Virus record (IMG/VR): IMGVR_UViG_3300044844_001069
Location: 1-48,561 of that record
DNA length: 48,561 nt
Direction: 5' to 3' (one strand)
Source of the DNA: a virus
Lineage: Duplodnaviria; Caudoviricetes
Part shown: one piece after another, positions 1 to 16,285 of the stretch
Layout of the letters: every line of letters starts with the position of its first letter
Position numbering within the stretch: the first letter of the stretch is position 1
Notes under the pieces: model-generated
The model's database searches: none
Told to the model about the DNA's origin: nothing
The model's input: the letters and a program-made list of their open reading frames with translations, nothing else
Position numbers and translations under genes: made by a program

Positions 1-127
1 ATCCAGCATCAACGCTTAAGGCTATCCAGCATCAACGCTTAAGGCTATCCAGCATCAACGCTTAAGGCTATCCAGCATCAACGCTTAAGGCTATCCAGCA
101 TCAACGCTTAAGGCTATCCAGCATCAA
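1..127. repeat. Tandem array of 23-bp unit ATCCAGCATCAACGCTTAAGGCT, about 5.5 perfect copies, running off the window edge
   Basis: Read directly; periodicity breaks after 127. Confidence 0.98.
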
Positions 128-157
128 AATGAATTTTAACGGTAAAATTATCAATAA

Positions 158-170
158 AATCAATAGGTTA
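158..170 (+). promoter_or_regulatory. IHF-consensus site
   Basis: AATCAA-TAGG-TTA matches WATCAANNNNTTR, with an AT-rich upstream tract. Confidence 0.5.
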
Positions 171-194
171 TAAAAGCTATGTTATAACATTGCA

Positions 195-241
195 GGGACT
201 CTGGGAAATCGTGAAGCAGCGCGGGGGGGAAGCACCCCGCG
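195..241 (+). other. Putative lambda-like cos site (cosQ-like GGGACTC plus cosN-like dyad)
   Basis: GC-rich island in AT-rich DNA; dyad CGCGGGG (220-226) / CCCCGCG (235-241); cosQ-like heptamer starts 30 nt before the centred 12-mer, as in lambda; genome encodes a gpA-type terminase. Confidence 0.6.
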
Positions 242-265
242 ATTTCAGTGGTTACGGAGTTTTTC

Positions 266-278
266 TAAGCCTTTGATA
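266..278 (-). promoter_or_regulatory. IHF-consensus site downstream of the cos candidate
   Basis: Minus strand reads TATCAA-AGGC-TTA. Confidence 0.5.
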
Positions 279-385
279 CACAATTACTTTTAGGATGACA
301 CAAGAAATGCTCCGTTGCCGTCACGCCTAATGGATAATTTCAGGTAAATCTATACTATATGCCAAGTGTCAATAAAATGGCAGAT

Positions 386-412
386 AAAAAAATAGGGCAA
401 TAAATGCCCTAT
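386..412 (-). terminator. Rho-independent terminator of the left-arm operon
   Basis: ATAGGGCA/TGCCCTAT stem with an adjacent A7 tract, just after the endolysin stop. Confidence 0.75.
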
Positions 413-440
413 CAAAATAAAGTTATTTTAAGTTCAGCAT

Positions 441-890
441 CTAAGCGTTTGCTGTTTCCATCACAGTTTTCAAATAAGCCGATCTGTTTCCAACTTGACT
501 ATACCATTTAGAATTCTTCATTTCAGCAGCCGCTTTATCATATTCACCTTTACCGACAGCAGTCAGCATATTTTTGAATTTATAAAGACCACCTGTGCCC
601 ATGTTATACGCCATATTAATCAATACCCATTGGCGGTCTTCATCGAGTGCTTCAAACCAAGAGAAATGTGTTTCCAATTCTGCTTTGATTTTTTCACAGA
701 GAAGCATTAATAAACGTTCTGCTGCTTCCTTAGTAATACCATTCTGCTTTAAGCGTTGAACGTTTACCTTTAGTGGATTTGCATCCATGTTGTAGCCATA
801 GCCAATCGTGTTTTTATCAGCAGTGCATTTATACGGCACAGCAGAAAAGCCTTCATGGATTTTAAGTGTATCAAGATGTTTTTGAGCCAT
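441..890 (-). CDS. Endolysin, T4-like/GH24 lysozyme
   Basis: HEG...PYKCT...TIGYG catalytic region; NMAYNMG; SKWYSQVGNR. Confidence 0.9.
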   Translation of the reverse strand: MAQKHLDTLKIHEGFSAVPYKCTADKNTIGYGYNMDANPLKVNVQRLKQNGITKEAAERLLMLLCEKIKAELETHFSWFEALDEDRQWVLINMAYNMGTGGLYKFKNMLTAVGKGEYDKAAAEMKNSKWYSQVGNRSAYLKTVMETANA

Positions 891-1074
891 AATTTATTTT
901 TCCTATTACGAATTCAATTGTTCCGCATTCAACACATTCAACGCAACCGATTACAGGATGTGGTACAAAAATCTTACATTCATGTTTGGTAAAAAATCGA
1001 TTGAAAATTTTTGCAAAAAATCTCATGGCAGTTGATACATTAATTCTTGGAACGCGATTTATAAAATTTACCAA
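871..1074 (-). CDS. Hypothetical protein (small, Cys-containing; start uncertain)
   Basis: ORF packed in the minus-strand operon; CxxCxxC motif. Confidence 0.45.
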   Translation of the reverse strand: MVNFINRVPRINVSTAMRFFAKIFNRFFTKHECKIFVPHPVIGCVECVECGTIEFVIGKINYGSKTS

Positions 1075-1249
1075 TATTGCTTAAAGCGATTTGGCGTTTA
1101 GTTTTTGACGAAATACAATTTACTGCACGTTGCGCATTTCTGCGAATAAATTCTTCTTGAATTGGAAAACTATAAAGATTGATTGGTGGAAATTTAATAT
1201 CTGACCAAAGCATTTTCAACCCTATCGTAAATTCAAACGTAGCTATCAT
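1040..1249 (-). CDS. Hypothetical protein
   Basis: ATGA overlap with the upstream gene. Confidence 0.55.
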   Translation of the reverse strand: MIATFEFTIGLKMLWSDIKFPPINLYSFPIQEEFIRRNAQRAVNCISSKTKRQIALSNIGKFYKSRSKN

Positions 1250-1824
1250 TGTAGCAAATCCTCAAGTAATTCAGGATGTTCAATCTGTTGCATAATTTGA
1301 GAAATCATATCTCGCCAGTATAAATACCGATGGTCTTTACGCTGTGAAATAATATTACGGAGCGTAGCGTAATTAATGGAAACATCGCGCGTTTGCAGAT
1401 AGCCTTCGGGCAGAGAATCTTTTAATTCCATGAAGGACATATCGCCATTTTTGTATTTAAGCCAAATCACTTTAAAAATATCAACAACAATCTTTGGTGT
1501 AGTTATTGAGAAATCATTGTAAGTAGGCTCACGCTTATCAAGCTTGTGCATAGTGCTTGCAGAAAGTTCTGTGCTTCCAATTTTGTAAGTAGCGTATTCC
1601 TGCCAAAATGCCCGTGTTGCTCTGATGGTCAACTTGATATCAATGACACGCAAAAACTTGGAATGCTCAGGCGTTTTTACGCACAATAGCTTTGCTCGTT
1701 TTTCTGCTTTAGCTTGCTGTGTTTCCCACCAGAGTTGTTCATCATCTGCTTCATCATAATAACTGCGTGACATTCCTAATAGCGCAAAGTCATAACCGAA
1801 TTCATGTCGAATATCTACTTGCAT
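1246..1824 (-). CDS. Divergent ThyX-like (flavin-dependent thymidylate synthase fold) protein
   Basis: HSKFLR, RAFWQE, SASTMH, LPEG and NYATLRNII..R..H motifs; nucleotide-metabolism context. Confidence 0.65.
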   Translation of the reverse strand: MQVDIRHEFGYDFALLGMSRSYYDEADDEQLWWETQQAKAEKRAKLLCVKTPEHSKFLRVIDIKLTIRATRAFWQEYATYKIGSTELSASTMHKLDKREPTYNDFSITTPKIVVDIFKVIWLKYKNGDMSFMELKDSLPEGYLQTRDVSINYATLRNIISQRKDHRYLYWRDMISQIMQQIEHPELLEDLLQ

Positions 1825-2177
1825 TTTGGGTCACGCAAAGCTTCAGCTAAAATTTCAATAATGTCGTGAATGCTTTTATCTGAAACAATTGAAACATCAA
1901 CTTGATTGTCATCCTCATCATCGTAATCAATGCTAAAATCAAAATCGTAATCATCAGTTTCAGTTTCAACAAGATATTCAATTTGTTTTTCAATATGCCA
2001 AATGGCTTTTTCAAGTGATTCAACACCACCTTTTTGTTTATGTCGCCATAAATATTTAATTGCATTTCCAATCAAATAGCCTTCATAGCCTGATAGGTTT
2101 TGAACAGCAGATTCAATTACATCAATACATTCAATTCCGCCTTGGTTGTAATGGTCTGGATGATTTACGTTGCTCAT
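1815..2177 (-). CDS. DUF3310 / T7 gp1.7-like nucleotide kinase domain protein with acidic tail
   Basis: VNHPDHY..GGIECID, GNAIKYLWR...K.G.E.LEKA.W signature. Confidence 0.88.
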   Translation of the reverse strand: MSNVNHPDHYNQGGIECIDVIESAVQNLSGYEGYLIGNAIKYLWRHKQKGGVESLEKAIWHIEKQIEYLVETETDDYDFDFSIDYDDEDDNQVDVSIVSDKSIHDIIEILAEALRDPKCK

Positions 2178-2193
2178 TATTTTTGCCCTATAG

Positions 2194-2916
2194 TTAATTA
2201 CGATATGCCAATAAAATTTCTTTACAAATGCCCGATCTCACAACATCATCAACTGTAAATTCAACAATTCCAATGTTATCAATATTGCGTAATCGGTTAA
2301 CAGCATCTTCTAAACCGCAAATACCGTTAATGTCTTTTTGCTCAATGTCACCGTCAATTATGACTTTCGTATCTTCACCTACACGCGAAAGGAAAAGTTT
2401 CATTTGCGATGGAGTCGTGTTTTGAGCTTCATCCAAAATGTAAAGACAATTTGAAAAAGTCTTACCGCGTAAAAATTCTAACGGCTTAAACTGGATTGCA
2501 CCGCGTTTGACCAAATATTCAGTATGTGATTTTCCCAATCTTTCGTTAAGCACATCGAGTAATGGTTCAATGTATGGTGCAAACTTTTCTTGAAGGTCAC
2601 CTTTTAAAAAACCAAAACCCCGACCTGCTTCAACATTTGGTCGAGTCATGACAATGGTGTCAATGTGACCTTCTTCTAGCATTTGGGCAGCATACGATGC
2701 GGCAATATATGTTTTTCCAGACCCAGAAATTCCAACAGCAAACGTAATAACGTTTGCGCGAATGGTGTTTAAATACTGCTGCTGGATTTTATTTAAAGCA
2801 ACGATTTGTTTTGCTTTTCTTGCACCAAAATTTTGTGGCTCTTGCTGTTGAAACTTTGACGCTCTTTTCTCTTTACGAGAAATCTTTTTATTAAAATCCA
2901 TTACTGCTCCATGCAA
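2194..2916 (-). CDS. phoH: PhoH-family ATPase
   Basis: GISGSGKT Walker A, LRGKTF, ILDEAQN, GD..Q.D, DVVRS. Confidence 0.95.
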   Translation of the reverse strand: MHGAVMDFNKKISRKEKRASKFQQQEPQNFGARKAKQIVALNKIQQQYLNTIRANVITFAVGISGSGKTYIAASYAAQMLEEGHIDTIVMTRPNVEAGRGFGFLKGDLQEKFAPYIEPLLDVLNERLGKSHTEYLVKRGAIQFKPLEFLRGKTFSNCLYILDEAQNTTPSQMKLFLSRVGEDTKVIIDGDIEQKDINGICGLEDAVNRLRNIDNIGIVEFTVDDVVRSGICKEILLAYRN

Positions 2917-2928
2917 TTGAAAATAATA

Positions 2929-3375
2929 TTATTTGGTCGTACTTCCGAATCCACCCGTTCTTTGCGTTGGTAAATCAAATTCTTCAACTTGGATAAACTC
3001 AGGATGTTCAACAGGTATGAAAATCATTTGAGCAATAACAGCATACGGATTTATTGTGAAAGGCTCATTACCACTGTTCCAAAGCGATACCATAATTTCG
3101 TTAGAAAAATCACTGTCAATTAAGCCGACTAGATTACCAAGGACAATGCCATTTTTATGACCTAAGCCTGACCTTGGAAGCAATTTGATTGCGTAATTAA
3201 TACTTGGGATTCTAATCGCAAAGCCTGTTGGGATTAGCTTACGTTCACCGCAAAGCAGGGTAATAGGCTTGTCAATCTCTGCTTCAATGTCATAGCCAGC
3301 ACTACCGTCAGTAGCGCGTTGAGGAATGCTTACGCCATCGCGTAATATTTTTATGTAAACAGATTCTAAACTCAT
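2929..3375 (-). CDS. dut: Trimeric dUTPase
   Basis: GSAGYD, PRSGL, GLIDSDF, AQ, RTGGFGST motifs. Confidence 0.95.
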   Translation of the reverse strand: MSLESVYIKILRDGVSIPQRATDGSAGYDIEAEIDKPITLLCGERKLIPTGFAIRIPSINYAIKLLPRSGLGHKNGIVLGNLVGLIDSDFSNEIMVSLWNSGNEPFTINPYAVIAQMIFIPVEHPEFIQVEEFDLPTQRTGGFGSTTK

Positions 3376-3617
3376 AATTTGCCCTTATTTTTTACGGATT
3401 TTTTAGAAATAGTTTTTTTAACAACAGGTTTTTTAATATCTTTGCAAATTGTAAATTTTTTCAAACTTGGCAATCGTTGCAAAAGATTGACAACAGGGTA
3501 TGACTCAATTGCTTTTTTGTAAGCAACCATGTCAGTTTTACAAATTTTAGTTTGCGTTATTGAACCATGGGCATCAAGACAAAATGGCAAAATGAATAAT
3601 ATCAATAATTTTTTCAT
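3372..3617 (-). CDS. Hypothetical exported Lys-rich protein
   Basis: Signal-peptide-like N-terminus; overlaps both neighbours. Confidence 0.65.
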   Translation of the reverse strand: MKKLLILFILPFCLDAHGSITQTKICKTDMVAYKKAIESYPVVNLLQRLPSLKKFTICKDIKKPVVKKTISKKSVKNKGKL

Positions 3618-4054
3618 TAGTAAAACTCCAAACGTCCAATGATTATTGGCTTTGTGGGTGTTGGGTAGCGTTTACCGTAGCTGACGTGATTAAAATATAT
3701 TGCGTGTTTGGTGACGGGATTTGTAAATCCTCGGTAGACTTCGATTGCTGCAATTCTGGCTAAACGCCATGCGCGTTTGTCGTTCACTGGATGTTTTTTC
3801 TTTACCCAAGAAAATTGCTTGTATTGGCTCACCACGCCACAAACGTCTTTAGGGTAGCCTTTGGTATTACTTCTTCGTAAAGTGACCTCTGCAACCGCTT
3901 TACGCGCAGATAATGGCTCTCCTCGACTTTCGTGGTAGATGTTTTCTTGAAGACAGCGAATTTGTTTGTTGTGACGTAAATCGAAATCTGCCATTGCGTT
4001 TGTAGAACTCAAAAGCAGTAATGCGGAAATGCAAACTGGGTATTTTTGAATCAT
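3617..4054 (-). CDS. SleB-like cell wall hydrolase (Hydrolase_2) with signal peptide
   Basis: CL..NIYHESRGE, AVAEV...R, P..VCGVV.Q..QFSW. Confidence 0.92.
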   Translation of the reverse strand: MIQKYPVCISALLLLSSTNAMADFDLRHNKQIRCLQENIYHESRGEPLSARKAVAEVTLRRSNTKGYPKDVCGVVSQYKQFSWVKKKHPVNDKRAWRLARIAAIEVYRGFTNPVTKHAIYFNHVSYGKRYPTPTKPIIIGRLEFY

Positions 4055-4169
4055 GGTTTTTACTCGTCAGGTTAAAAAAATAAAATGCCGCCAGATTGAT
4101 AAATCGCCAAAAAGTGATTATGACGGCAAATGAATTTTACCAAAAATACACAAAAAAGCCAATATTCAT

Positions 4170-4543
4170 GTGTGTCATAGCTAAAAACGACCTATGACAC
4201 CCCTCTAGCCCAATGCTGGTGCGGCTTTCAGTAAATTTTGTCACGCGTCACACAGCAAATGAGAAAAACCTTTTATATGTGATGTGATGTGATGTGTATT
4301 TTTATATGTTTTTATATATTTCTATTTCTTCTTTTTTTTCTATTTATACTACTTTTTCTTATTTATCTATGACAGTGTGACAAAGGTAGAAAGAAAGGTA
4401 AATAGATAAAGGGATAGAGGGGTGTCACAGATAAAGTTTATCTGTGACAAAAAAGCGTCACAGATAGACCAAAACGTGGTGTTTTCTAGGTAAAATTAGA
4501 AAAGTGTCACACGTCACACTAGTGTGACACTATCTGTGACACT
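4170..4543. other. Putative replication origin: TGTCAC/GTGACA iterons, palindromes and an AT-rich tract
   Basis: About a dozen GTCAC/GTGAC-like motifs; perfect inverted repeats at 4423-4449 and 4513-4528; directly downstream of the primase-helicase gene. Confidence 0.7.
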
Positions 4544-4575
4544 TTTTTTAGAGGTGAAAATTTATTGGAGTTTTT

Positions 4576-7014
4576 CTAAAAATCGTCTACGTTTTCATTT
4601 TTTGATGTTGCATCAAGTAAATCTTTTACTGCTTCAATTGAAATATTTGAGTTCTTTTTTACCCAAACATGATGACGATTGTTCTGCCAACGAACCATTT
4701 TTGTAAATTTACTGTAACCCATTGCCATCAAAATTGAGGTAATTTGTTTGTCACCATACTCAAAATTTTCATCAAATGAGTTAGCCGAAATGGCATTTTT
4801 TAGCATCCTTGTTGATACCACTTTTTTATCAAAACCGATACCTCCTTGTAAGATTAAATCGTTCACAAATTCAGAAAATTCTGAACGTGACATTTTAGCC
4901 ATGACTTCTTTTTCATGAGTCATTGGTGCTGGTGCTTTAGGGTTAAAATCTTCAGATATTGGGTATTCTCTAAAAAACTTATTAATTTGTGGTGCGTGGA
5001 TTTCTATTCTTTTATGGATTTCGTAAAAATATTTAGCAAGGTCATCAACGCCAATTATTTCTTTCATATCCTGTGCATTTGCCCACTCGGTAAAAATAAT
5101 AAGCCAACGTCTATCGGTATCGCTTAACGGTAAAGCATCCTTATAATTGGTAAACGCAATATAATTAGTGACGTTTGGAATCATATAATGCCCTTTATAA
5201 GGCTTTCTAATACTGATGTTATCATTGGTGATAAGCGGCTTAACTCGGTCAAGCACGTCATAGCGGTTATGCCCAACCATGCGTAGTTCTTCAATAGCAA
5301 CCAAACACGAACCCTCAGCAAAGCCATTAAAGTTATCGTGGAAGATGGTAGGTTGCGCTGAGAAAATGTTTTCATGCCCAAGTGAACACGCCATAATTGT
5401 CGTCAGCATGGACTTCCCATCACCTTCAATTCCTTGGATTAGTGGTGCAAAGTTAATCTTTTTGCCCATATTCTGTATGGTGTACGCCATCCAATCCATT
5501 AAAGCCTTGATGACTTCTTCACGCTGAGAGCATAAATGCCTGATGTGGTCTTCTACCATCTTAATAGTAATCAAACCATCCTCAGTATAATTCTCGGCAA
5601 CAGGTGGAAGTGACTTCTTAGAAAACGAATTTACGCATTCTTCGCTACCAATTTGGAACTCACGACCAAGCTGCGGCATATACATTATTCGGTCTTTAAT
5701 TGTCAGGTTTCCGAATTTTGAAAGAAAAGCTGTCGGTTGCATTTTATGCCCACTATCGTCTTCTTCGATGTAATGCCAGAAATTCAGGTCAAAGTTTTGG
5801 AGTGTTAATGTCTTTGATGAAGCTAAATTAAAATGAACAGAATCTTCATTTACCCATACCCATCCTTTTGCCCAATTTGGTTTGGTTACTTCCGATACAT
5901 TCTCAAATGGCTTAAGCATATCGCGCACAATGTTTATGGCAATAGCACGACCTGTCAATTTGGTGTAACGCTTTTTCCACTCCACACAAACTTCTTCAAA
6001 AGCAAATTCAGACAAATCAGACGTTTTCTTAATTTCATCCGCCAAGCCTTCCTTTAAATATTGCACATCCGCATCATCGATTTTTTCAAGAAGTGTTTTT
6101 TCAATCTTACCGCTTCTTATTTTCTTGGAAGCAAACTCTAAACTGGCAATGGTGACTGCATTTCCATTTCCTTTACTGCTGAATGTTTTCCAGTGCTTTT
6201 TGCAAACACCTTTTTCATATTTTGAACCTTTCTGCGACCATTCTTCCCAAACGAAGAAAAGTTTGTCACAGTTAAGACTGTGTAATGCCATGCCATGTTT
6301 AATCCACTCGTCATACTCGCAGTCAGGGTCAATCTCATTTAATTTCTGACGGTATTCTTCAATTTCTTCATCAGATAGTTCTGCAACAATGTCGTCAAAC
6401 ATATCCTCGTCTTCGGAAAAGAATCCTTCATCCTTTTTATCTTCTCGGAAGTTTGATTTGAAGTTTGTTGCGCCTAATTCCTCTAAGTTTTTTTGAACAA
6501 CTTTCAAAAAAGAAACTAAAGTCGATTTTGATATGACCGTCAAATCATTGACGCTTGTTGTTAAAGGTGAAACATCGTTTAACCACTCATAGGGTAATTT
6601 GGTATCGGGGTGAATTCCAAACCCGATGAACTGCTGACCGTCACCTAGGATTTCAATCTTTTGTTTTGTGCCTTCGTAGTCAAACTGCAAAAACATTTTT
6701 AAAATTGCTGCATCCACCTTATATAGGAAAAGGCATTTAGGCTTATTGCCAAAACGCAGTGGTGCTTCACCAAGAAAACCTGAAGCCATGCCGACAATTA
6801 GGTCATTGACTAACTGGTCAGACACATCGATGTCAACAGCCGCTAAATTGCTACCAAGCAGAATACCTACATTATTATCTGCATATCTTGTTTTCCAACT
6901 TTCCCCATTTTCGGTTTTAGACTGCCAAGCCTTAAGTATTGGAGCTTTCCCGTCACATGGTGTAATCAAATAGCCGTTATTTGATAAGCCATCAAAGCAT
7001 TTACTTATTGTCAT
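4576..7014 (-). CDS. Primase-helicase: bifunctional PrimPol + PriCT-2 + SF3-like (DUF5906) NTPase
   Basis: NVGILLG..LAAVDID, GIHPDT..PY.W, YDEWI..GMALH...W.EWS..G.KY, GIEGDGKS, AFTN, DRRW. Confidence 0.92.
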   Translation of the reverse strand: MTISKCFDGLSNNGYLITPCDGKAPILKAWQSKTENGESWKTRYADNNVGILLGSNLAAVDIDVSDQLVNDLIVGMASGFLGEAPLRFGNKPKCLFLYKVDAAILKMFLQFDYEGTKQKIEILGDGQQFIGFGIHPDTKLPYEWLNDVSPLTTSVNDLTVISKSTLVSFLKVVQKNLEELGATNFKSNFREDKKDEGFFSEDEDMFDDIVAELSDEEIEEYRQKLNEIDPDCEYDEWIKHGMALHSLNCDKLFFVWEEWSQKGSKYEKGVCKKHWKTFSSKGNGNAVTIASLEFASKKIRSGKIEKTLLEKIDDADVQYLKEGLADEIKKTSDLSEFAFEEVCVEWKKRYTKLTGRAIAINIVRDMLKPFENVSEVTKPNWAKGWVWVNEDSVHFNLASSKTLTLQNFDLNFWHYIEEDDSGHKMQPTAFLSKFGNLTIKDRIMYMPQLGREFQIGSEECVNSFSKKSLPPVAENYTEDGLITIKMVEDHIRHLCSQREEVIKALMDWMAYTIQNMGKKINFAPLIQGIEGDGKSMLTTIMACSLGHENIFSAQPTIFHDNFNGFAEGSCLVAIEELRMVGHNRYDVLDRVKPLITNDNISIRKPYKGHYMIPNVTNYIAFTNYKDALPLSDTDRRWLIIFTEWANAQDMKEIIGVDDLAKYFYEIHKRIEIHAPQINKFFREYPISEDFNPKAPAPMTHEKEVMAKMSRSEFSEFVNDLILQGGIGFDKKVVSTRMLKNAISANSFDENFEYGDKQITSILMAMGYSKFTKMVRWQNNRHHVWVKKNSNISIEAVKDLLDATSKNENVDDF

Positions 7015-7189
7015 TTTCCAAACCTTTTGTTATTTTCTGATATGTCACAAGAGTGATATTGTTCTTATGACCGCCCTTTATCATGTACAACGTTTTATAG
7101 CTAACGTTGCATTTCTTTGCTAATTTCCTGACATCTATGCCGCTATACGGTTGAAGTTTGTTTTTTAAATCGTTTAATAGTTCATTCAT
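7001..7189 (-). CDS. Cro/XRE-like HTH regulator
   Basis: VRKLAKKCNVSYKTLYMI helix-turn-helix; AAGGA RBS; head of the leftward operon. Confidence 0.8.
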   Translation of the reverse strand: MNELLNDLKNKLQPYSGIDVRKLAKKCNVSYKTLYMIKGGHKNNITLVTYQKITKGLENDNK

Positions 7190-7220
7190 TTGTTATTATT
7201 CCTTTGCGGTTATGTAATTC

Positions 7221-7238
7221 TGTGTATTATAATACACA
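7221..7238. promoter_or_regulatory. Palindromic operator overlapping divergent -10 boxes
   Basis: Perfect palindrome TGTGTATTATAATACACA with TATAAT on both strands, between divergent operons. Confidence 0.75.
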
Positions 7239-7266
7239 ACACAAACTAAAACATAAAGGAGTATTT

Positions 7267-7920
7267 ATGAGTATCAATGATTTGAAACTTAAAATGACGC
7301 TTGTTCAAATTGAATTGGCTGAACTTCGTCAGATAATTCAAGCAAAAGAAGACACATTTAAAGCATTGGAATGGCAATGTCATGAGCTTACCAAAGACGG
7401 TACACATGAAAATGCCATAAAAATAATTGATGAAAAAAGAACGTGGGTATTTAATCCTCATACAGGCATAGAAGAATTTATGACTGATGCAGACCTTGCC
7501 ATTGAAGAAAAAATTTATGATGAATTTCTTAAAGACCAAGCAAAAGAAGACATTGCTTCTGATGAAACAACGCATGAGCAGTGCATCGCTCAAGTTGAAA
7601 AAGAAGAAGCGTTAGAAATTGCTGCGGCTGCTGATCAAGAATGTTTGCTTGACCCAATCGTTGACATTGAATCAGAAGAAAATGAGGTAGAAAACATTAA
7701 ATCAGAAGAAAGTGTTGATATTAAAATTCAAAATTTTAATATTGAACCGTTAAGCGTTGATGCCTTATCGATTATGGCAATCAAGTATTATAAGAAAACA
7801 GGTGAAGCTGTTACGGATATAATCGAAGAACGCTTTAATGTTAAGTCGCTTCATAAACTTAACGATTTTCAAAACTGCACATTGCAACTTATCTTAATGG
7901 GTGAAACATGGAATCAATAA
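7267..7920 (+). CDS. Hypothetical acidic protein
   Basis: Start moved to the ATG after AAGGAG; N-terminal coiled coil; first gene of the replication operon. Confidence 0.75.
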   Translation: MSINDLKLKMTLVQIELAELRQIIQAKEDTFKALEWQCHELTKDGTHENAIKIIDEKRTWVFNPHTGIEEFMTDADLAIEEKIYDEFLKDQAKEDIASDETTHEQCIAQVEKEEALEIAAAADQECLLDPIVDIESEENEVENIKSEESVDIKIQNFNIEPLSVDALSIMAIKYYKKTGEAVTDIIEERFNVKSLHKLNDFQNCTLQLILMGETWNQ

Positions 7921-8033
7921 TTGCTTTTATTAAATATCTTGACGAAACCAATCTTGGCTATTTGTTAATGATACTGTTGTTCTTACTTCAGAACTATCTT
8001 TTAACAAATAATGGTAAACGATGGGAACGTTAA
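7908..8033 (+). CDS. Small hydrophobic peptide, 41 aa (not in ORF track)
   Basis: MESIIAFIKY...LLMILLFLL; overlaps the previous stop. Confidence 0.45.
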   Translation: MESIIAFIKYLDETNLGYLLMILLFLLQNYLLTNNGKRWER

Positions 8034-8116
8034 TTGAAATTGTACTTTATATGTCGTTTATCAATACCGTAGCGATGTTTATTTTTGCTTATATAATTTG
8101 GGATAACGAAGAATGA
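8021..8116 (+). CDS. Small membrane peptide, 31 aa (not in ORF track)
   Basis: MGTLIEIVLYMSFINTVAMFIFAYIIWDNEE; ATGA overlap with the next gene. Confidence 0.5.
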   Translation: MGTLIEIVLYMSFINTVAMFIFAYIIWDNEE

Positions 8117-9270
8117 GTCACGCAAAATTGTCACCGTCCGCATCCGAAAGATGGATGAATTGCCCTGCCAGCGTTAAAGCGATTGCCTTAATGCCAGAAA
8201 CTGTTGATGAGTCATCGTCATTTGCCGCTGAAGGCACAGCCGCACACGACCTCGCTTCAACCTGTCTAACAACAGGTATGCCACCTGAAGCGTTTAAGCG
8301 TACCGTGTTTAGTGGCTATTTGCCTGATAAAGAAATGCTAATTAATGTGCAAACGTATCTTGATTATATTGATGAGATTTTAGAAGATATTTACGGCACA
8401 CTTCATGTTGAGATAAAAGTGGATTATTCACGTTGGGTGCAAGGTGGATTTGGCACATCTGATGCAATAATTTGCGATAAAGATGATAATTGCATTCACG
8501 TTGTTGACTTAAAATACGGTAGAGGTATTGAGGTATATGCTGAGAATAATACGCAATTGCAGCTATACGCCTTGGGTGCTTATGAGAAATTTAACAAAAA
8601 ATATGACATTCAAAAAGTAAAAATGCATATTGTGCAACCCCGCATAAACAATATCAGCAGTTGGGAAATATCGATTGGACAATTACTTGAATTTGGCGAA
8701 TATGCCACGCATCGCGCTAATCTGACCTTACTTCCCAATGCGCCATTTTCAGCAAGCGAAGAAGCCTGCCAGTGGTGTAGCGCAAAGTCATATTGCGAGG
8801 AATTGGCGAAAGTAAGTCTGCAAACAATGTCAGTTGATTTCAGTGACCTTACGCAGATTGAACCCGTGGAAGTGCCAATGCTTACTGCAAAAGACATTTC
8901 AGTTATTTATGATAAATTGCCGTTGCTTAAATCTTGGATAAAAGCAGTTGAAGAAGCGGCTCAAAATCTGGTGCAAACTGACGAGCTGAAAGGATTCAAA
9001 TTAGTAGCAGGTCGAAATTCAAGAAAGTGGAAATTCTCGGATGAAGATATTGTTAAATTGCTTGTTGATGACTTTGATTTAGACCCTGAGCAAGTTGTCA
9101 CCTTTGAAACGATTAGTGTTGCTCAATGCGAAAAGCTTCTTGATAAAGACGGTAAAAAGGAGCTTAAAGATTATTACATAAGCATATCAGGAAAGGCTCA
9201 AATCGTCCCTGCTGATGATAAACGCCCAGCGTTAACCACATCGTTAGATGATTTTGACACACTAGAATAA
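8113..9270 (+). CDS. DUF2800 / Cas4-like PD-(D/E)xK exonuclease
   Basis: HAKLSPS...RW..CP, EGTAAH, FGTSD, VDLKYGRG, QL.LYALG, CQWC.....C. Confidence 0.92.
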   Translation: MSHAKLSPSASERWMNCPASVKAIALMPETVDESSSFAAEGTAAHDLASTCLTTGMPPEAFKRTVFSGYLPDKEMLINVQTYLDYIDEILEDIYGTLHVEIKVDYSRWVQGGFGTSDAIICDKDDNCIHVVDLKYGRGIEVYAENNTQLQLYALGAYEKFNKKYDIQKVKMHIVQPRINNISSWEISIGQLLEFGEYATHRANLTLLPNAPFSASEEACQWCSAKSYCEELAKVSLQTMSVDFSDLTQIEPVEVPMLTAKDISVIYDKLPLLKSWIKAVEEAAQNLVQTDELKGFKLVAGRNSRKWKFSDEDIVKLLVDDFDLDPEQVVTFETISVAQCEKLLDKDGKKELKDYYISISGKAQIVPADDKRPALTTSLDDFDTLE

Positions 9271-9275
9271 AATTA

Positions 9276-9309
9276 TTGACTTTAGCTAGTGTAATATAAT
9301 ACACTAGCT
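9276..9309 (+). promoter_or_regulatory. Sigma70-like promoter with overlapping palindromic operator
   Basis: TTGACT-18-TACACT; inverted repeat AGCTAGTGTA-6-TACACTAGCT. Confidence 0.6.
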
Positions 9310-9525
9310 TCAACAGATTAGCTGGTCGATGCAAAACCAGTTTACACAAGCTCTTTAAGTTTTTAATCTTAATAGAAGCACTACTATTTAAAAGTGGCAA
9401 ATGTAGTTATGCGGAAAGCCTTAATGCACAAAAAATAACTGACTGCTGGAAAGACAGCACTATCAATTTTAGTGGTATGTTCCAAAACGGAACTAACCTT
9501 AATTTTAAATTTAGAGGAAATTATA

Positions 9526-9681
9526 ATGAGTATTTTTGATAATATTGTTGAAGCTGTTGAAAAAGTTACTGATGACGTTGTAGATGCCGTTACTGATATT
9601 TCAGAAGGAGATATCATTGGTGCAATTGAAAATGTTGTTGATGCTGTTGAAACAGTAAAAAACATTGAAGAAAAACTTTAA
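9526..9681 (+). CDS. Small highly acidic protein, 51 aa
   Basis: AGAGGA RBS before ATG 9526; D/E and V/I-rich repeat pattern. Confidence 0.7.
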   Translation: MSIFDNIVEAVEKVTDDVVDAVTDISEGDIIGAIENVVDAVETVKNIEEKL

Positions 9682-9708
9682 TGTATCAAGCAAAGCAAAA
9701 TGCTTTGC

Positions 9709-9748
9709 TTACTAAATTGCTAACTTACTAAATTGCTAAATTACTAAA
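9709..9748 (+). repeat. Five tandem 8-mers TTRCTAAM in the SSB leader
   Basis: TTACTAAA TTGCTAAC TTACTAAA TTGCTAAA TTACTAAA, preceded by hairpin 9688-9710. Confidence 0.9.
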
Positions 9749-9765
9749 TCGATAAGGAATTAAAA

Positions 9766-10320
9766 ATGTCTGACCCAATTATTTTAAAAAATGTTCGTTT
9801 AAGTTTTGCACATTTGTTTAAAAAAGAAACTTTTAAGCAAACCGATGGTAGCGTGACTGTTGGTAAATATGCAGCAACACTATTGCTAGATAAAACCGAA
9901 CATAAAGAAGCTATTGAAATGTTAAAAGCGGCTTCACGCCAAGCTGCAATTGAGAAATTTGGAGAAGGTAAAGTTCCAAAGTCAATTGTATTGCCATTAA
10001 AAGATGGTGATACTCAGGATTACGATGGTTATGAAAACCAAATGTATCTTAAAGCAGCTTCAACTCGTAAGCCTGTTATTATTAATAAGAAAAAACAAAA
10101 CATTGTAGAAGAAGACGAAATCATTTTTTCAGGCGATTACGTTAACGCCAAGATTGATTTTTGGGTGCAAGATAATGCGTTTGGTAAAAAAGTAAACGTC
10201 AATTTACAAGCAATCCAATTTGTCCGTGAAGGTGAACGTTTTGGCGCAGCACCTGTTAGCATTGATGATTTTGAAGTGGAAGCGTCATCTGATATTGAAG
10301 ATGAAGATTTTCCTTTTTAA
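9766..10320 (+). CDS. Single-stranded DNA-binding protein (DUF2815 / gp2.5-like)
   Basis: VRLSFAHLF, PLKDGD, SG.YV, L.AIQF..EGERFG, acidic tail ending DFPF. Confidence 0.92.
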   Translation: MSDPIILKNVRLSFAHLFKKETFKQTDGSVTVGKYAATLLLDKTEHKEAIEMLKAASRQAAIEKFGEGKVPKSIVLPLKDGDTQDYDGYENQMYLKAASTRKPVIINKKKQNIVEEDEIIFSGDYVNAKIDFWVQDNAFGKKVNVNLQAIQFVREGERFGAAPVSIDDFEVEASSDIEDEDFPF

Positions 10321-10336
10321 ATAACTAATGCGTATT

Positions 10337-10369
10337 AGCCGAAACGGGAATTCTCGTTTCGGCTTTTTT
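10337..10369 (+). terminator. Rho-independent terminator after ssb
   Basis: AGCCGAAACG...CGTTTCGGCT followed by a T run. Confidence 0.8.
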
Positions 10370-10370
10370 A

Positions 10371-12236
10371 ATGGGATATGCTATGCAAAACCTAGTCTTT
10401 ATCGACACTGAATGCTACAAAAATTACTTTCTTGTATTTGTTAAAAATGAAGAAGGTAAAGTGTATTATTGGGAAATGTTTAACAATAAGCGTCCTGATA
10501 CCATAATGCTTGCTAAAGCACTCAAATCAAAAACGCGAACATTTGTATCATTCAACGGTTTGTCTTACGATATGCCTATGATAGAAGCCTTTTTAAATGG
10601 GTTTACTAACGAACAGCTAAAAGCCTTAAGTGATGACATCATTGTTAACCAAGCTCGAAAGTATCATAACCTGCCATGTGACCATATTGATATTATCAAT
10701 ATCCCCATTGGTCAATCTTCATTAAAGATTTATGCTGGACGTTTACATTGTAAAAAAATGCAAGACTTGCCAATTGAACCTAGTGCAATAATTAAAGAAA
10801 CTGATATTAGTAATTTACGTCAATACTGTGAAAATGACGTTGATAATACACGATTGATATTCAATGAAATCCGTCAAAGAATTGACTTGCGTGAAGAAAT
10901 TACCGCGCAATATGGAATCGATGTTAGAAGTAAAAGTGATGCGCAAATTGCTGAAGCAGTTATTAAATCTGAGGTTTCAGCAATAACGGGCAAGCAATAT
11001 AAGCCAACACCTTACCCTGATGATTTTAAATTTAAATATCAAAATCCACAAATATTGTCTTTTCAATCTAATTATTTGAATTCATTGTTTGAAACAATAT
11101 TGGAAGAAGAATTTGGTCTTAGTGAAAAAGGTGGGGTTAAACTTCCAGAATGGCTTTCGGAAGATAGAATTTCATTTAATTTTTTGCATCAGAATATTGA
11201 TGTAGTAAATCGATTTTATCAATTTGGAATTGGGGGTTTGCATTCGTGTGAAAAAGCGCAAAGTGAATATTCTGATGATGAGTATATGCTGTGTGATGCG
11301 GATGTCGGCAGCTACTATCCATCAATTATTGAGCAATTAGGTTTGTTTCCAAAATCATTTGGTAAAGATTTTTTAAATCTGTATTCCAAAATAATTATTG
11401 AAAGATTGGCAGCAAAAGGAAAAGCATCTTCTATTGCTAAAACTATTGGCAAGTTAACTATTGATACTACTGATTTACAAATAGAAATGAAACGGCACAT
11501 TGTCGAATCTGAAGTTAAAAAAATCGTGTTAAATTCTTCGTTTGGCAAATTTGGAAGTAAATACAGCACTTTATATTCGCCAGAACTGCTTATCCAAGTG
11601 ACAATAACAGGTCAATTAGCACTTTTAATGCTGATTGAAAAATTAAATATGAATGATATGCTTGTTATTTCAGCCAATACTGATGGTATCGTGGTTAAAT
11701 TAAAACGCACTGCTTACGATGAATTCCAAACGATTGTGCAATGGTGGGAATTGCAAACAGGCTTTCGGATGGAAGAAACACAATACAAATCCATTCATAG
11801 TCGTGATGTAAATAATTATTTTGCCATTAAGCCTGACGGTAAAGTAAAGTCAAAAGGTATTTATGGTGATGCAACACTAAGTAAAAACCCAACTGAGCTT
11901 ATCGTCAGCAAAGCCGTAATTGCTTATGTGAATAAAGGTATTCGGATTGAAGACTATATCCGAAATGATACTGACATCAGAAACTTTACAAGCATTCGTA
12001 CCGTAAAACTTGGTGCATACTTTCGTGGTGAATTGATTGGTAAAGCAGTTCGATTCTATCAGTGTTCAACAAGTAGTGATTTTTTAGTTAATGCAAAAGG
12101 TGATAAAGTGGCTAAGTCCGATGGATGCTTTCCATTAATGGAATTACCAGATACCTTGCCTGACGATATAAACTATGACTACTATATCGCTGAAGCAATC
12201 AAATTATGCAAATTGACGGGAATTGATTATGTTTGA
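10371..12236 (+). CDS. Family B DNA polymerase with 3'-5' exonuclease domain
   Basis: ExoI DTE, ExoII FNG..YD, ExoIII YC.ND; motif A DVGSYYP, B K...NS.FGK, C NTDG. Confidence 0.9.
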   Translation: MGYAMQNLVFIDTECYKNYFLVFVKNEEGKVYYWEMFNNKRPDTIMLAKALKSKTRTFVSFNGLSYDMPMIEAFLNGFTNEQLKALSDDIIVNQARKYHNLPCDHIDIINIPIGQSSLKIYAGRLHCKKMQDLPIEPSAIIKETDISNLRQYCENDVDNTRLIFNEIRQRIDLREEITAQYGIDVRSKSDAQIAEAVIKSEVSAITGKQYKPTPYPDDFKFKYQNPQILSFQSNYLNSLFETILEEEFGLSEKGGVKLPEWLSEDRISFNFLHQNIDVVNRFYQFGIGGLHSCEKAQSEYSDDEYMLCDADVGSYYPSIIEQLGLFPKSFGKDFLNLYSKIIIERLAAKGKASSIAKTIGKLTIDTTDLQIEMKRHIVESEVKKIVLNSSFGKFGSKYSTLYSPELLIQVTITGQLALLMLIEKLNMNDMLVISANTDGIVVKLKRTAYDEFQTIVQWWELQTGFRMEETQYKSIHSRDVNNYFAIKPDGKVKSKGIYGDATLSKNPTELIVSKAVIAYVNKGIRIEDYIRNDTDIRNFTSIRTVKLGAYFRGELIGKAVRFYQCSTSSDFLVNAKGDKVAKSDGCFPLMELPDTLPDDINYDYYIAEAIKLCKLTGIDYV

Positions 12237-12510
12237 GAGTAAAATTGAAAAGTATTTAGTCGATAGCTGTAAAAAACGTAATTGGCTTTGTGAAAAATTC
12301 ACATCACCGTCAGGTAGAAACAAACCCGACAGGATGATAACGCTACCAAACAAGGTTGTGTTTGTTGAGCTTAAAGCCACTGGAAAAACACCCAATGCAG
12401 GACAATTAGCCGACCATGAGCGAAGACGAAATTTTAATATTGATGTTTACGTCATTGATAGCCTATCTGCTGTTGATGTTCTCTTAACCCAACTTGAACT
12501 GAGTATTTAA
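12229..12510 (+). CDS. VRR-NUC domain nuclease
   Basis: E..IE..L, KF.SP....PDR, FVELKA.G......Q. Confidence 0.9.
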   Translation: MFESKIEKYLVDSCKKRNWLCEKFTSPSGRNKPDRMITLPNKVVFVELKATGKTPNAGQLADHERRRNFNIDVYVIDSLSAVDVLLTQLELSI

Positions 12511-13850
12511 TGTTAGCCTTATCTGATTTGCACAAGTATCAAACAAAAAGCAAAGATTTTATTTTAGACAACAATAATTGCGGATTATTTCAGCAATGCG
12601 GTTTAGGTAAAACGGTCAGTACGCTAACAGCTATATCTCATTTATTTGAACAACGTGAAATTAAAAAAGTATTGGTGATTTCAACACTTCGAGTCGCCAA
12701 TACGGTTTGGCATAATGAGGTTAAAGAATGGGAGCATTTGCAGCATCTATCTGTAAGTCGAATTATTGGTAATGCAAAGCAACGTTTAGAAGCAATTAAT
12801 AAATGCCAAATTCATACTATTAATGCTGAGAATTTACCTTGGCTTGTTCGTGAAGCTTGTCGGAATAATTTCCCATACGACTTTGTTGTTTTTGACGAGT
12901 CATCGCTATTTAAAAATTCATCATCGATACGTTTTAAAGCCGCAAAAGCAATGCTACCTGTACTAAGTCGCACATTGATACTGACAGGCTCACCAGCAGC
13001 CAACGGTGTGCATGATTTATGGTCACAAGTCTATTTGCTTGACCAAGGTAAACGACTTGGTAAAAACATCACTGCTTTTCGCAACAAATGGTTTATTCCA
13101 AATCGATTTTATGGTTTTGACCCTTTGCCAAATGCGCTGATTGAAATCCCAGCTCGCATCGAAGATATTTGTTTAAGCATGAAAGCTGATGATTATCTTG
13201 ATGTACCCGCAATGATTGAAAACGAAATAATGGTTGAACTATCTGCACCTGCTAAAAAGCTTTACAAAGAAATGCGTAACCAGTTATTGGTTGAAGTAAA
13301 CAGCATTGATATTGAATCTCCAACGGCTGCAACCCTTGTTAATAAATGCCAGCAAATTTCAAACGGTTTTCTTTACGATGAGCAAAAGAATATTCACGTT
13401 TTGCATGAAAATAAACTTGATGCTTTAAGTAGTATTATTGAAGAAACAGAAAGTCCAATCCTTATTTTCTATTCTTTTAAAGCAGACCTTCAAGCAATAC
13501 AAAAACGATTTGCATATGTTGCAACATTAGATAAGGATTCTGATTTGACCATAAAAATGTGGAATAACGGTGATGTACCGCTTTTATGTTGCCACGCCAA
13601 AAGTGCTGGACACGGGCTTAACTTACAAAAAGGTGGAAATACGATTGTTTGGTTTGGTTTGACGTTTTCTTGGGAACTATTTGAGCAAGCAAATTCACGT
13701 TTACATCGTCAGGGTCAACGTAAAAATGTCTTTGTGCATTACCTTCTCGGTGATGGGACAATTGACCATTTAATTCTAAAAGCTTTACGCAATAAAGAAC
13801 GTGTACAAGATTCTGTTTTTGAGCAATTAAAAGCTCTTGACAAATCATAA
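12510..13850 (+). CDS. SNF2-like (SF2) helicase
   Basis: GLGKT, DESS, LTGSP, SAGHGLNLQ, QANSRLHRQGQ. Confidence 0.93.
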   Translation: MLALSDLHKYQTKSKDFILDNNNCGLFQQCGLGKTVSTLTAISHLFEQREIKKVLVISTLRVANTVWHNEVKEWEHLQHLSVSRIIGNAKQRLEAINKCQIHTINAENLPWLVREACRNNFPYDFVVFDESSLFKNSSSIRFKAAKAMLPVLSRTLILTGSPAANGVHDLWSQVYLLDQGKRLGKNITAFRNKWFIPNRFYGFDPLPNALIEIPARIEDICLSMKADDYLDVPAMIENEIMVELSAPAKKLYKEMRNQLLVEVNSIDIESPTAATLVNKCQQISNGFLYDEQKNIHVLHENKLDALSSIIEETESPILIFYSFKADLQAIQKRFAYVATLDKDSDLTIKMWNNGDVPLLCCHAKSAGHGLNLQKGGNTIVWFGLTFSWELFEQANSRLHRQGQRKNVFVHYLLGDGTIDHLILKALRNKERVQDSVFEQLKALDKS

Positions 13851-13879
13851 CGCAAACCGCAAAATCTATTAACGCCAAT

Positions 13880-14056
13880 ATGGATGAAACTAAAAAAAAA
13901 GTAAAACCTGATTTATTTGATTTGCATGATTTTAGTAAACGTGATTTTTCAGAAATAATTACTTCAACTTTAGATTTTAAATTGGCAAAAGAATTCCTTA
14001 GGACTCCGTTTTTATATTCTAATCTTTATGACTGTGGCGATGACAGTGACGAATAG
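13880..14056 (+). CDS. Possible 58-aa hypothetical protein (not in ORF track)
   Basis: Open frame MDETKKKVKPDLF...DDSDE; no clear RBS. Confidence 0.35.
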   Translation: MDETKKKVKPDLFDLHDFSKRDFSEIITSTLDFKLAKEFLRTPFLYSNLYDCGDDSDE

Positions 14057-14211
14057 TCTACACATCGAACACGCCAGCTAACAGGTGCGTGTACATGAAA
14101 AAACAGTTAGCGTATGCATTTGTTTTATCCTTTTTAATAAATGCTGAGGGCATCGAGAACCACTCTAAAAAAAGCGTTTAGGTGTGACCTGCATAGTATT
14201 CTCCTTTCTTT

Positions 14212-14241
14212 AAAAAGCCAGCCTTATCCCTCTGGCTTTTT
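14212..14241. terminator. Likely bidirectional terminator
   Basis: AAAAAGCCAG...CTGGCTTTTT. Confidence 0.65.
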
Positions 14242-14242
14242 A

Positions 14243-14271
14243 TTGAACCTTAAATTGTAATATGTTACACT
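14243..14271 (+). promoter_or_regulatory. Sigma70-like promoter with degenerate operator
   Basis: TTGAAC-17-TACACT; 14255-14270 matches GTGTAATATAATACAC at 13/16. Confidence 0.6.
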
Positions 14272-14277
14272 AAGTTT

Positions 14278-14378
14278 GAGTTTTTTAGATTTGCACGGAC
14301 GAGGTGTATTTAATCTAAAGGATTCGTCCTGACCTGCTGATACTGTGTTCTCGTCCACCTGTATCAGCGGGTTTTTTT
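14278..14378 (+). ncRNA. Putative structured leader or small RNA ending in a terminator, upstream of nrdJb
   Basis: Crossed pairings 14284-91/14312-19 and 14297-302/14324-29; 11-bp stem plus T7 tract. Confidence 0.4.
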
Positions 14379-14401
14379 ATTTCTAATTTTGAGAATAATT
14401 T

Positions 14402-15049
14402 ATGTTTACTATTAATAAAAAAATTGTTGGCTATCAAGTTGTAAATAAAACTGAAGAAGAAATTGCAGTAAAACCTGAACTTGAAACCATCCATGAAGCA
14501 ATCAAACGTCCTGACATACTAACAGGCGCAACGTATAAAATTAAAACTCCGCAATCAGAACACGCTTTGTATATTACCATCAATGATATGGTTTTAAATG
14601 CAGGTACAGAGCATGAACAATATCATCCTTATGAAATGTTCATTAATTCCAAAAATATGGAGCATTTCCAATGGGTACTTGCATTAACTCGCTTAGTGTC
14701 GGCTGTTTGGCGCAAAGGTGGTGACTCTACGTTTTTAGTTGAAGAACTCAAAAACGTATTTGATCCGAAGGGTGGTTACTATAAAAAAGGTGGTGTGTAT
14801 ATGCCATCGCTAGTGGCTGAGATTGGTAGCGTAATTGAACAGCATTTAATAGCAACTGGTGTTATTAAAGTTAAGGTGGACGAACACATGGAAAAGTTTA
14901 TCAAAGCAAAGCGTGAAGAAGTGATGAGCAGTGAAGAAACTGGGTATCCTGCTAATGCCACTTTATGTAATGAATGCAATACAAAAGCGGTGATTGTTAT
15001 GGATAATTGTCAAGTATGCTTATGCTGCGCCAGCTCAAAGTGTGGGTGA
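14402..15049 (+). CDS. nrdJb: NrdJb-like (TSCPD + Zn ribbon) small subunit of split class II ribonucleotide reductase
   Basis: TYKIKTP.SEHALYITIND, FINSKNMEHFQW..ALTR, VFDP.GGY, terminal CxxC...CxxCxxC..SKCG. Confidence 0.85.
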   Translation: MFTINKKIVGYQVVNKTEEEIAVKPELETIHEAIKRPDILTGATYKIKTPQSEHALYITINDMVLNAGTEHEQYHPYEMFINSKNMEHFQWVLALTRLVSAVWRKGGDSTFLVEELKNVFDPKGGYYKKGGVYMPSLVAEIGSVIEQHLIATGVIKVKVDEHMEKFIKAKREEVMSSEETGYPANATLCNECNTKAVIVMDNCQVCLCCASSKCG

Positions 15050-15052
15050 TTT

Positions 15053-15469
15053 ATGAGTAAAGAAAGAGAGTTGTTAAAAAGAGTGCGAGATACACTGCGC
15101 GAATTAAAAGAAACTCATTATGATTTGTACTGGGATATACAAGCTGAACTAGACCTAGATGAGCAAGAGCCTGTGGCGTGGATGTCAACAAAAGGGGAAG
15201 GCGGTCTTACTGACGATAGTTATTATGCTAACCTCAAAGATTATGTGCCACTCTACCTAGCACCAACAAAACGTGAACTTTTGAGTGATGATGAAATTTT
15301 TAAAATTGGATACAATGCAGGATTTGCTCTTGACCATGTTGAAAATGATGATGATGATTGTTCCGCCTATGGATTTTTAAACGAGTATGGTTACATTGAT
15401 AATAATCCATATTTTAAGTTTGTCAGAGCAATAGAAAAAGCACACGGTATTGGAGTAGAAAATGAATAA
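15053..15469 (+). CDS. Hypothetical phage protein (QEPVAW...PLY...RAIE.AHGI type)
   Basis: Motifs common in small proteobacterial phage proteins; operon packing. Confidence 0.75.
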   Translation: MSKERELLKRVRDTLRELKETHYDLYWDIQAELDLDEQEPVAWMSTKGEGGLTDDSYYANLKDYVPLYLAPTKRELLSDDEIFKIGYNAGFALDHVENDDDDCSAYGFLNEYGYIDNNPYFKFVRAIEKAHGIGVENE

Positions 15470-15650
15470 AGAAACTATTTACATTGATGCAGTCACTAAG
15501 CTCAATGAACAAGATGTCGTTATTCAAGAACTAGCTGAACTGCTTAGTGATGTTTTATATGTTTGGAGAGGGTATTCAAAATCAGAAGAATATGACTTGT
15601 ATGTAAAAGCAAATGATTATTTAAAAGGATTGAGAGATGACAGAACATGA
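15462..15650 (+). CDS. Hypothetical protein
   Basis: GGAG RBS; overlapping operon gene. Confidence 0.7.
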   Translation: MNKETIYIDAVTKLNEQDVVIQELAELLSDVLYVWRGYSKSEEYDLYVKANDYLKGLRDDRT

Positions 15651-15846
15651 AATAAACGTTCTTATAAATGTTAATAAGGAATTGTTTAAAGCTATAAAAA
15701 TACTCAATGATTTAAATCATGATTTTGTTTTTGTTAATGAAACAACTTCGTATCACACGATTATAAATTCATGTCGCCAGATACTTTTTACCGTATCTGA
15801 AGAAATTACACAAACCGTTGTTAAAGAGGATAAAAAATGTCAGTGA
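15637..15846 (+). CDS. Hypothetical protein
   Basis: Overlapping operon gene. Confidence 0.65.
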   Translation: MTEHEINVLINVNKELFKAIKILNDLNHDFVFVNETTSYHTIINSCRQILFTVSEEITQTVVKEDKKCQ

Positions 15847-16262: not shown

Positions 16263-16285
16263 AATCTTTATGATATAATTCAAAA

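Follow-up and report, generated by a model that had tools for sequence, protein, structure and literature searches.

Fast-changing tandem arrays at the contig ends of a tailed-phage genome with a probable lambda-type cos site

The mirrored terminal repeats of the window (the whole stretch of 48,561 nucleotides that was analyzed) are real, fast-changing tandem arrays located at assembly breaks, just inside the probable packaging cut site of a lake phage, and are not telomeres. In the reading that we favor, with a probability of roughly 55%, these arrays lie in a gene-free arm that is packaged last, into which short local words have been copied and expanded by slippage, and which serves at most as a length buffer.

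The left end of the window (1-127, plus strand) is the inner end of a tandem array with the 23-bp unit AAGGCTATCCAGCATCAACGCTT, of which 5.5 copies are visible. The right end (48435-48561) is the inner end of an array of the 16-bp unit AAGGCTATCCAGCTCA on the minus strand, with 7.9 visible copies. Both arrays are cut by the assembler, and TRF gives 100% matches in each, which confirms the two perfectly homogeneous, inverted arrays described in an earlier note made from the sequence alone. No CRISPR array is present at the contig ends, where the units follow each other head-to-tail without spacers (TRF). The 13-bp core that the same note found in both units is indeed present, five times on the plus strand at the left and seven times on the minus strand at the right. 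With up to two mismatches, this core is found 13 times, where shuffles average 0.71 and none of 100 reaches 13; moreover, the longest stretch common to two shuffled units never exceeded 10 bases in 5000 trials, compared to the 13 observed. Because the core exceeds all shuffles, the 23-mer and the 16-mer share an origin. The 16-mer equals the 23-mer minus 7 nt, as had been claimed, and direct comparison of the two sequences puts the difference down to two separate deletions, of 1 nt and 6 nt.

The periodic stretch at each contig end is exactly 127 bp long. A word of k=127 is a usual largest one of short-read assemblers. In a k=127 de Bruijn simulation, arrays of 10, 20 and 40 copies left exactly 127 periodic bases, and arrays of 6 or 8 copies were read through. 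This, together with the identical length of both ends, indicates that the visible copy numbers are minima. Passages of PMC6350398 describe both the use of k=127 and a link between repeats and assembly fragmentation.

Contigs of four public runs from four studies (X1, X2, X3 and X6) were aligned to positions 75-3000 of the window. The 23-mer unit is present in all four runs, contiguous with phage DNA. X1-X3 are marked as possible sources of this DNA; X6, from another study and not so marked, carries a 96%-identical variant (27 differences in 683 bp). One contig in each of X1, X2 and X3 runs through at least 255 bp of unique sequence into the 23-mer array, at an identical phase and with an identical 30-letter edge, and no unique entry was found for X6 among the matches listed. 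Among the loose ends listed, this is the single entry sequence into the array, identical in the three runs. The edge upstream of the array is unlike the terminal modules and absent from the window, from 78 loci and from the viral contigs. Since unique DNA precedes it in X1-X3, the left array lies within the genome and has no direct contact with the 16-mer array. The second model of the earlier note, in which the arrays of a circular or cos genome meet head-to-head about 70 bp before a cosQ-like motif, thus holds for a cos genome with internal arrays at this distance from the motif and fails for the head-to-head meeting. A cruciform at the junction, also part of that model, is very unlikely, as the unique DNA excludes a direct palindromic junction. 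From unit-length cos packaging and the size of two relatives' contigs we infer that the unique piece joins the right array; at 49,019 and 49,479 bp, those contigs agree with 48,561 bp plus the missing copies and the spacer.

The depth of the array contigs relative to their flanks, a rough measure, is 18.3 in X1, 10.9 in X2, 19.7-22.4 in X3 and 4.3-13.6 in X6; the values of X1-X3 exceed the number of copies visible in the window. This suggests a 23-mer array of ~4-22 copies, or roughly 130-550 bp, which differs between samples. The array thus behaves as a variable-number tandem repeat, with a unit that differs in the relative L008 and depth ratios of 4 to 22 across runs, rough as these are. A 53-bp low-depth contig of X6 with two differences from the 23-mer suggests a variant unit in that population. 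Elsewhere, exact patterns of the two-unit arrays had no match in the viral contigs. A looser pattern gave four matches there, all of them unrelated short repeats, and the two matches of the array pattern in metagenome contigs were discarded as unrelated two-copy repeats. The right terminal region was found in none of five related records.

The genome end is very probably a lambda-type cos site, 97 bp inside of the left array. An AT-rich spacer (128-194, 21% GC), conserved in relatives, separates the array from a cosQ-like heptamer, GGGACTC (195-201, plus strand), which is identical to lambda cosQ at five of seven positions and sits in the same place. The earlier note had pointed to such a motif close after the left array, and it starts 67 bp past the array end. 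The spacer contains an IHF-consensus site (158-170, plus strand), a predicted binding site upstream of cosQ that is exact in L007 and has one mismatch in L008. A cosN-like dyad, CGCGGGG-N8-CCCCGCG (220-241), follows, with a predicted top-strand nick after position 223; its 22 bases are unchanged in L007 and L008. The distance from cosQ to the predicted nick is 22 bp in the window, L007 and L008, compared to 23 bp in lambda, and counts by eye give 22 bp for VP58.5 and 23 bp for R20L. In the window and these two relatives, the sequence of this 22-bp spacer varies and its length is constant. Together with the gpA/Nu1-type terminase and the lambda-family portal, the cosQ spacing and the CG-flanked dyad place the site among the lambda-type cos sites. 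In database contigs, the cos 22-mer was found twice among viral contigs and not among metagenome contigs.

A candidate cosB (238-440, plus strand) contains an inverted pair (253-266 and 303-316) around a second IHF-consensus site (266-278, minus strand). This site is present in the window, L007 and L008. The inverted pair occurs in the window, L006 and L007 and is absent in L008, which makes its role uncertain. With the strict 13-bp form that we take to be the IHF consensus, eight exact matches occur in the window, two of them, 158-170 and 266-278, within 70 bp of cos. Both sites also fit the consensus given in a section of PMC1914354. The candidate cosB is followed by a lysin gene on the opposite strand, and terS (44415-44957) and terL are located ~45 kb away, transcribed against the predicted packaging direction.

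Contig starts, an indirect kind of evidence, coincide with the dyad. The contigs of X3 and X6 start at 224, without cover of 173-223, and L006 starts at 229. The dyad is read through in five assemblies (window, X1, X2, L007 and L008), as annealed ends or intracellular DNA allow. Another cause of the starts at 224, 224 and 229 could be a loss of sequencing cover over the hairpin, which is rich in GC and has a G run. According to a section of PMC4669245, CG pairs flanking the nick sites are conserved in lambda-like cosN, and the window has such pairs at 222-223 and 238-239. If these flanks hold, the predicted 5' overhang (224-237) would be 14 nt long; otherwise it would be 12 nt, which breaks the right CG flank. 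An overhang of 14 nt would widen the known range of cuts by lambda-type terminases.

The last gene ends at 47735, and the arm beyond is free of genes. This right arm is a degenerate duplication of 406 bp with an array after each copy. The first copy of the non-coding module (47733-47970, plus strand; repeat spacing 406 bp) is followed by a third tandem array (47978-48072, plus strand) with the 12-bp unit CCTGAGGTTTGT, of which 4.8 perfect copies stand at 48008-48065 between degenerate flanks. The second copy (48139-48434, plus strand) precedes the 16-mer array and ends with a weak IHF-like site with one mismatch (48398-48410, minus strand). Such one-mismatch matches are common, with five in 47731-48561.

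Replacement of the unit is seen in L008, whose lysin is 94% identical to that of the window and which is the only relative with a fully visible array. In the same place, it carries a different perfect 16-mer, in 6.9 copies to the contig end, and an 8-mer in 5.1 copies. The contig of L007 stops after 11 bp of a word that resembles the 23-mer. The 8-mer array of L008 (4612-4652; GGGGTTCA on the other strand), at five copies, fits a G-quadruplex pattern. Comparable arrays were found in none of ten cultured phages with related terminases (last 2 kb) and in none of 61 prophage loci (3 kb upstream of TerL; 18 of 79 were dropped as short), two sets in which the cosQ side is not certain in all cases. 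INPHARED contained no close relative of the window phage. The relatives retrieved by the PAPS reductase were rejected as other phage types, and neither comparable non-coding arrays nor the same cos occur in the prophage with the nearest named TerL or in phage-like contigs of two further genomes (G202 and G194). Two lineages with different units at one site, next to comparators without any, suggest that this lineage keeps its arrays, which neutrality explains poorly.

A local source of the units was considered by comparison with the candidate cosB, in post hoc tests on five units. Between the 16-mer of L008 and the candidate cosB of that phage, 16 of 18 bases agree, a score reached by none of 945 background genome windows, and the two have in common an exact 11-bp word, as found in one of 3000 shuffles. 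The segment concerned, whose counterpart in the window is 314-336, differs in the window, L006 and L007. The window's own 16-mer has a 9-bp word in common with cosB (15 of 945 windows; 39 of 3000 shuffles). In gapped alignment, the two units of the window match their own cosB at background level, with 832 and, for the 16-mer, 366 of 945 windows as good, and no match above background was obtained for the 23-mer, 12-mer and 8-mer units. Since the window's units do not match cosB above background, an origin by local copying is supported for L008 only.

The remainder of the genome is that of a tailed phage. Of 111 ORFs, 54 proteins were scanned against PHROGs, a set without the tape measure and the small overlapping ORFs; some 17 of these proteins could not be assigned to a family. 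By the matches, the terminases (TerL and TerS), the portal, and the head and decoration proteins are of lambda type, and for replication the phage encodes a primase-helicase, a DNA polymerase, an SSB and a helicase of its own. The large terminase of lambda gpA type (42580-44418, minus strand; phrog_15, E 6e-191) is 37% identical to lambda gpA. The adjacent small terminase of Nu1 type (44415-44957, minus strand; phrog_57) matches PF07471 with an E-value of 1.6e-6, just under the curated cut-off. No integrase, recombinase, reverse transcriptase (RT), protelomerase, terminal protein, Rep or ParB was found among the 54 proteins with PHROGs. For RT and protelomerase, this agrees with the earlier note, which saw neither; a Pfam scan of 19 proteins gave no RT, protelomerase or terminal protein either.

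An origin-like non-coding region (4055-4575) is located right after the primase-helicase gene and is conserved in L006 and L007. It contains a T-rich tract, a 39-bp inverted repeat and seven of the window's 34 TGTCAC words, in both orientations within 303 bp (4239-4541). The GC skew tracks gene direction and is uninformative, and no tRNA was found in the window. The tape-measure-like protein of 2763 aa (19662-27953), very long for a 49-kb genome, has Ala/Lys/Gln-rich repeats and an internal duplication of 372 bp. A PhoH-like gene (2194-2916) and a PAPS-reductase-like gene (46369-47322) were identified as auxiliary genes. Two paralogous small genes in opposite orientation (41402-41683 and 45312-45770), from one PHROG family and with a 51-bp inverted repeat of 82%, flank the terminase block. 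The small tandem repeat (8/16 bp) that precedes the SSB gene, at 9708-9749, also occurs in L007.

Tentatively, and judged by sequence relationships, the host belongs to the Methylococcales. The nearest named TerL (60%) and portal (49%) are encoded in a prophage of a Methylococcales genome. In this prophage (L161, 8570-14218, of genome G006), terS/terL and the head genes lie back to back and diverge, and the DNA that separates them contains no evident cos. Positions 128-19600 of the window match 265 of 401 genomes of this order, the sole order searched, and the matches listed all fall on one gene near 14.3-14.8 kb, at 71-79%. This gene (14402-15049), with DNA 71-79% identical in many Methylococcales genomes, encodes a stand-alone TSCPD domain, which is related to ribonucleotide reductase. 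A CRISPR spacer context was found at none of 15 loci of the candidate host order.

In our preferred reading, the contig would be a nearly complete lambda-type cos genome that the assembler opened at two arrays longer than k=127. From left to right, the real map would run through the last gene (ending at 47735), module 1, the 12-mer array, module 2, the 16-mer array, the unassembled unique DNA (at least 255 bp) and the 23-mer array, followed by the AT-rich spacer with its IHF site, cosQ, cosN, cosB and the lysin gene. The terminase would bind cosB, cut at ~224 and package the DNA rightwards. The arrays would thereby be situated in the last 1.5-2.5 kb packaged, beginning ~100 bp off the right end of the virion DNA. 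As the arm has no genes, insertions would be tolerated there. Local words may have been copied into it by template switching, with one switch giving the inverted pair of 16-mer and 23-mer. Replication slippage or unequal exchange would then expand and homogenize the copied words, which would quickly be replaced. The sequence of the arrays would be of little weight, and their total length would at most buffer the unit length for terminal cos cutting. Part of PMC7617512 reports that terminal cos cutting depends on packaged length, and the arm may therefore act as a length buffer.

Alternatively, the arrays might be multiplied binding sites with a TATCCA/TGGATA core, in the DNA end that is packaged last or is the first to enter the cell. 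They would recruit or soak up a DNA-binding protein of host or phage, and their units would turn over under host-driven selection. We consider this a real but minor possibility. Candidate partners would be a defense or restriction protein, RecBCD/AddAB via Chi-like words, DnaA, or the terminase at termination. TATCCA is present in all three long units, is invariant in cosB (331-336) in four of four sequences, and is spaced by 10 bp in both 16-mers, that of the window and that of L008; yet a 6-bp word common to unrelated units also arises in 701 of 5000 shuffles. IHF-consensus sites stand beside the arrays, the comparators (ten cultured phages and 61 prophage loci) have none, and the presence of both orientations is compatible with a function of double-stranded DNA. 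In lambda, the last-packaged DNA end enters the cell first. The unit of L008 is one mismatch away from a DnaA box, but the window's units are three mismatches away. The array periods of 8, 12, 16, 16 and 23 have no helical phase in common, and the 13-bp core, matched in 59 of 301 Methylococcales genomes, has at most three copies per genome and gives no high-copy signal; its occurrence in this order is above a reversed control, possibly via codon use. The earlier note had named TerS among the candidate binders. Close relatives replace the unit with a nearly constant TerS (175 of 180 positions identical between the window and L001), which speaks against a site specific to TerS, provided that L001 and L008 are one phage, as their common assembly number suggests. 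An array of cosB type for TerS binding was rejected for the same constancy, with the same pairing of L001 and L008, and for the position of the arrays upstream of cosQ. Bolder, and doubtful in our view, would be a swappable DNA decoy arm inside the cos end, on the DNA that is the first to reach the host. Hundreds of bases of perfect tandem sites in both directions, derived from cosB words of the phage itself and with units swapped out between near-identical phages, would titrate a host defense or end-degrading protein, next to a cos with an unusual 14-nt 5' overhang. If true, it would be the DNA-level counterpart of pseudo-ToxI.

By analogy with the pseudo-ToxI of PhiTE, the arrays could instead yield, by transcription and cutting, many copies of a small RNA that imitates an antitoxin or guide RNA of the host, and they would expand when the host defense is present. 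Among the 20 runs listed by a DNA search as containing this sequence, none is an RNA run. Part of PMC3475682 offers a precedent of slippage-expanded, intergenic anti-defense repeats, and nothing resembling a terminator separates the rightward gene block, which ends at 47735, from the 16-mer array. However, Rfam gave no hit at the gathering threshold, folding was no better than in shuffles (z -0.99, -0.86 and -0.79; DNA parameters), promoter-like sites were at chance level, the units, at 16-23 nt, fall short of the 36 nt of a ToxI unit and the arrays face both ways, so this explanation is unlikely. A role as replication iterons or as a partition site beside the IHF sites and the AT-rich tract is a little less likely still. 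The ingredients of an origin are at hand (direct repeats of 16-23 bp, a tract of 21% GC and the IHF consensus), and AT-rich right-end tandem repeats have been proposed as an origin in Xop411, according to a portion of PMC2248197. Against it, the conserved origin-like region at 4055-4575 lies elsewhere, beside the primase-helicase gene, the units are not conserved, and Rep and ParB families are absent among the 54 scanned proteins. Quite improbable is an invertible or hairpin-forming cassette bounded by the inverted arrays, in which recombination at the 13-bp core would flip the unassembled middle piece. The inverted orientation with a common core and the local duplication history would suit it, but the entry into the 23-mer array has one sequence, identical in three runs, among the loose ends listed, the differing periods limit pairing to 13 bp, and a recombinase is absent among the 54 proteins. 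The other model of the earlier note, telomere-like ends of a linear replicon, fits a contig that ends in mirrored arrays and is nevertheless very improbable. At least 255 unique bases lie beyond the left array in three of the four runs, contig starts cluster instead at the cos-like dyad, 97-102 bp inside of the array, both periodic ends are exactly k long, and RT, protelomerase and terminal protein are missing among the 54 proteins. The chance of a library or adapter concatemer, which the note had also raised and which the perfect homogeneity would suit, is negligible; the unit occurs in four runs of four studies, one of them with a 96%-identical variant, and in a relative the site is occupied by another unit.

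According to a part of PMC4893331, phages generally lack variable tandem repeats. Despite this, the lineage of the window has several tandem arrays with fast turnover beside cosQ. If the arrays are neutral, they serve as a warning that mirrored repeats of exactly k bases at phage contig ends represent assembly breaks and not telomeres, and as a marker for strain typing of a likely methanotroph phage. If functional, they would be a new DNA-only form of counter-defense or packaging control. A literature search, for which most subscription journals and the bioRxiv supplements were out of reach, returned no account of a lambda-type cosQ preceded by long tandem arrays.

Several known systems show partial similarity. 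Short repeats adjacent to the terminal repeats of T7 and the iterons of plasmids are short direct repeats beside a genome end or beside an IHF/AT-rich tract. Their unit is conserved with its protein partner, whereas the units of the window are replaced between close relatives. Telomeres are found on linear phage-plasmids, as in the protelomerase hairpins of N15, and on terminal-protein replicons. The likeness is restricted to the look of the mirrored contig ends, as no such enzyme was found in the window and the left array is internal. Like the window arrays, the pseudo-ToxI repeat of PhiTE, as described in part of PMC3475682, is an intergenic phage tandem repeat of variable copy number that is thought to be expanded by slippage. 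It is expressed and mimics a known structured RNA of 36 nt, in contrast to the window arrays, which have no Rfam match and no folding signal, occur in both orientations and have more copies. Xop411, based on a portion of PMC2248197, is also a cos phage; its non-coding right end differs strongly from relative to relative and has perfect 15-bp tandem repeats. However, it has four copies of an almost pure A/T unit, a 3' overhang and a proposed origin, whereas the window has GC-balanced units, several arrays and an inverted pair. The closest resemblance in the packaging genes and the genome end is to lambda cos (cosQ-cosN-cosB; gpNu1/gpA), N15 and VP58.5 (a section of PMC4669245), in the gpA/Nu1-type terminase, the lambda-family portal and the head and decoration proteins, and in the cosQ-like heptamer 22 bp before the nick, the CG-flanked dyad and the downstream IHF-consensus site. 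In comparison with lambda, terS of the window is ~45 kb from cosB and points the other way, the overhang may be 14 nt instead of 12, and the phage carries its own replication genes without an integrase hit. Upstream of cosQ, the phage has more than 1.2 kb of DNA that is filled with arrays and lacks genes, a feature of none of the ten cultured comparators. The cos site itself appears to work like that of lambda, and it is the repeat-rich cos arm that is unusual.
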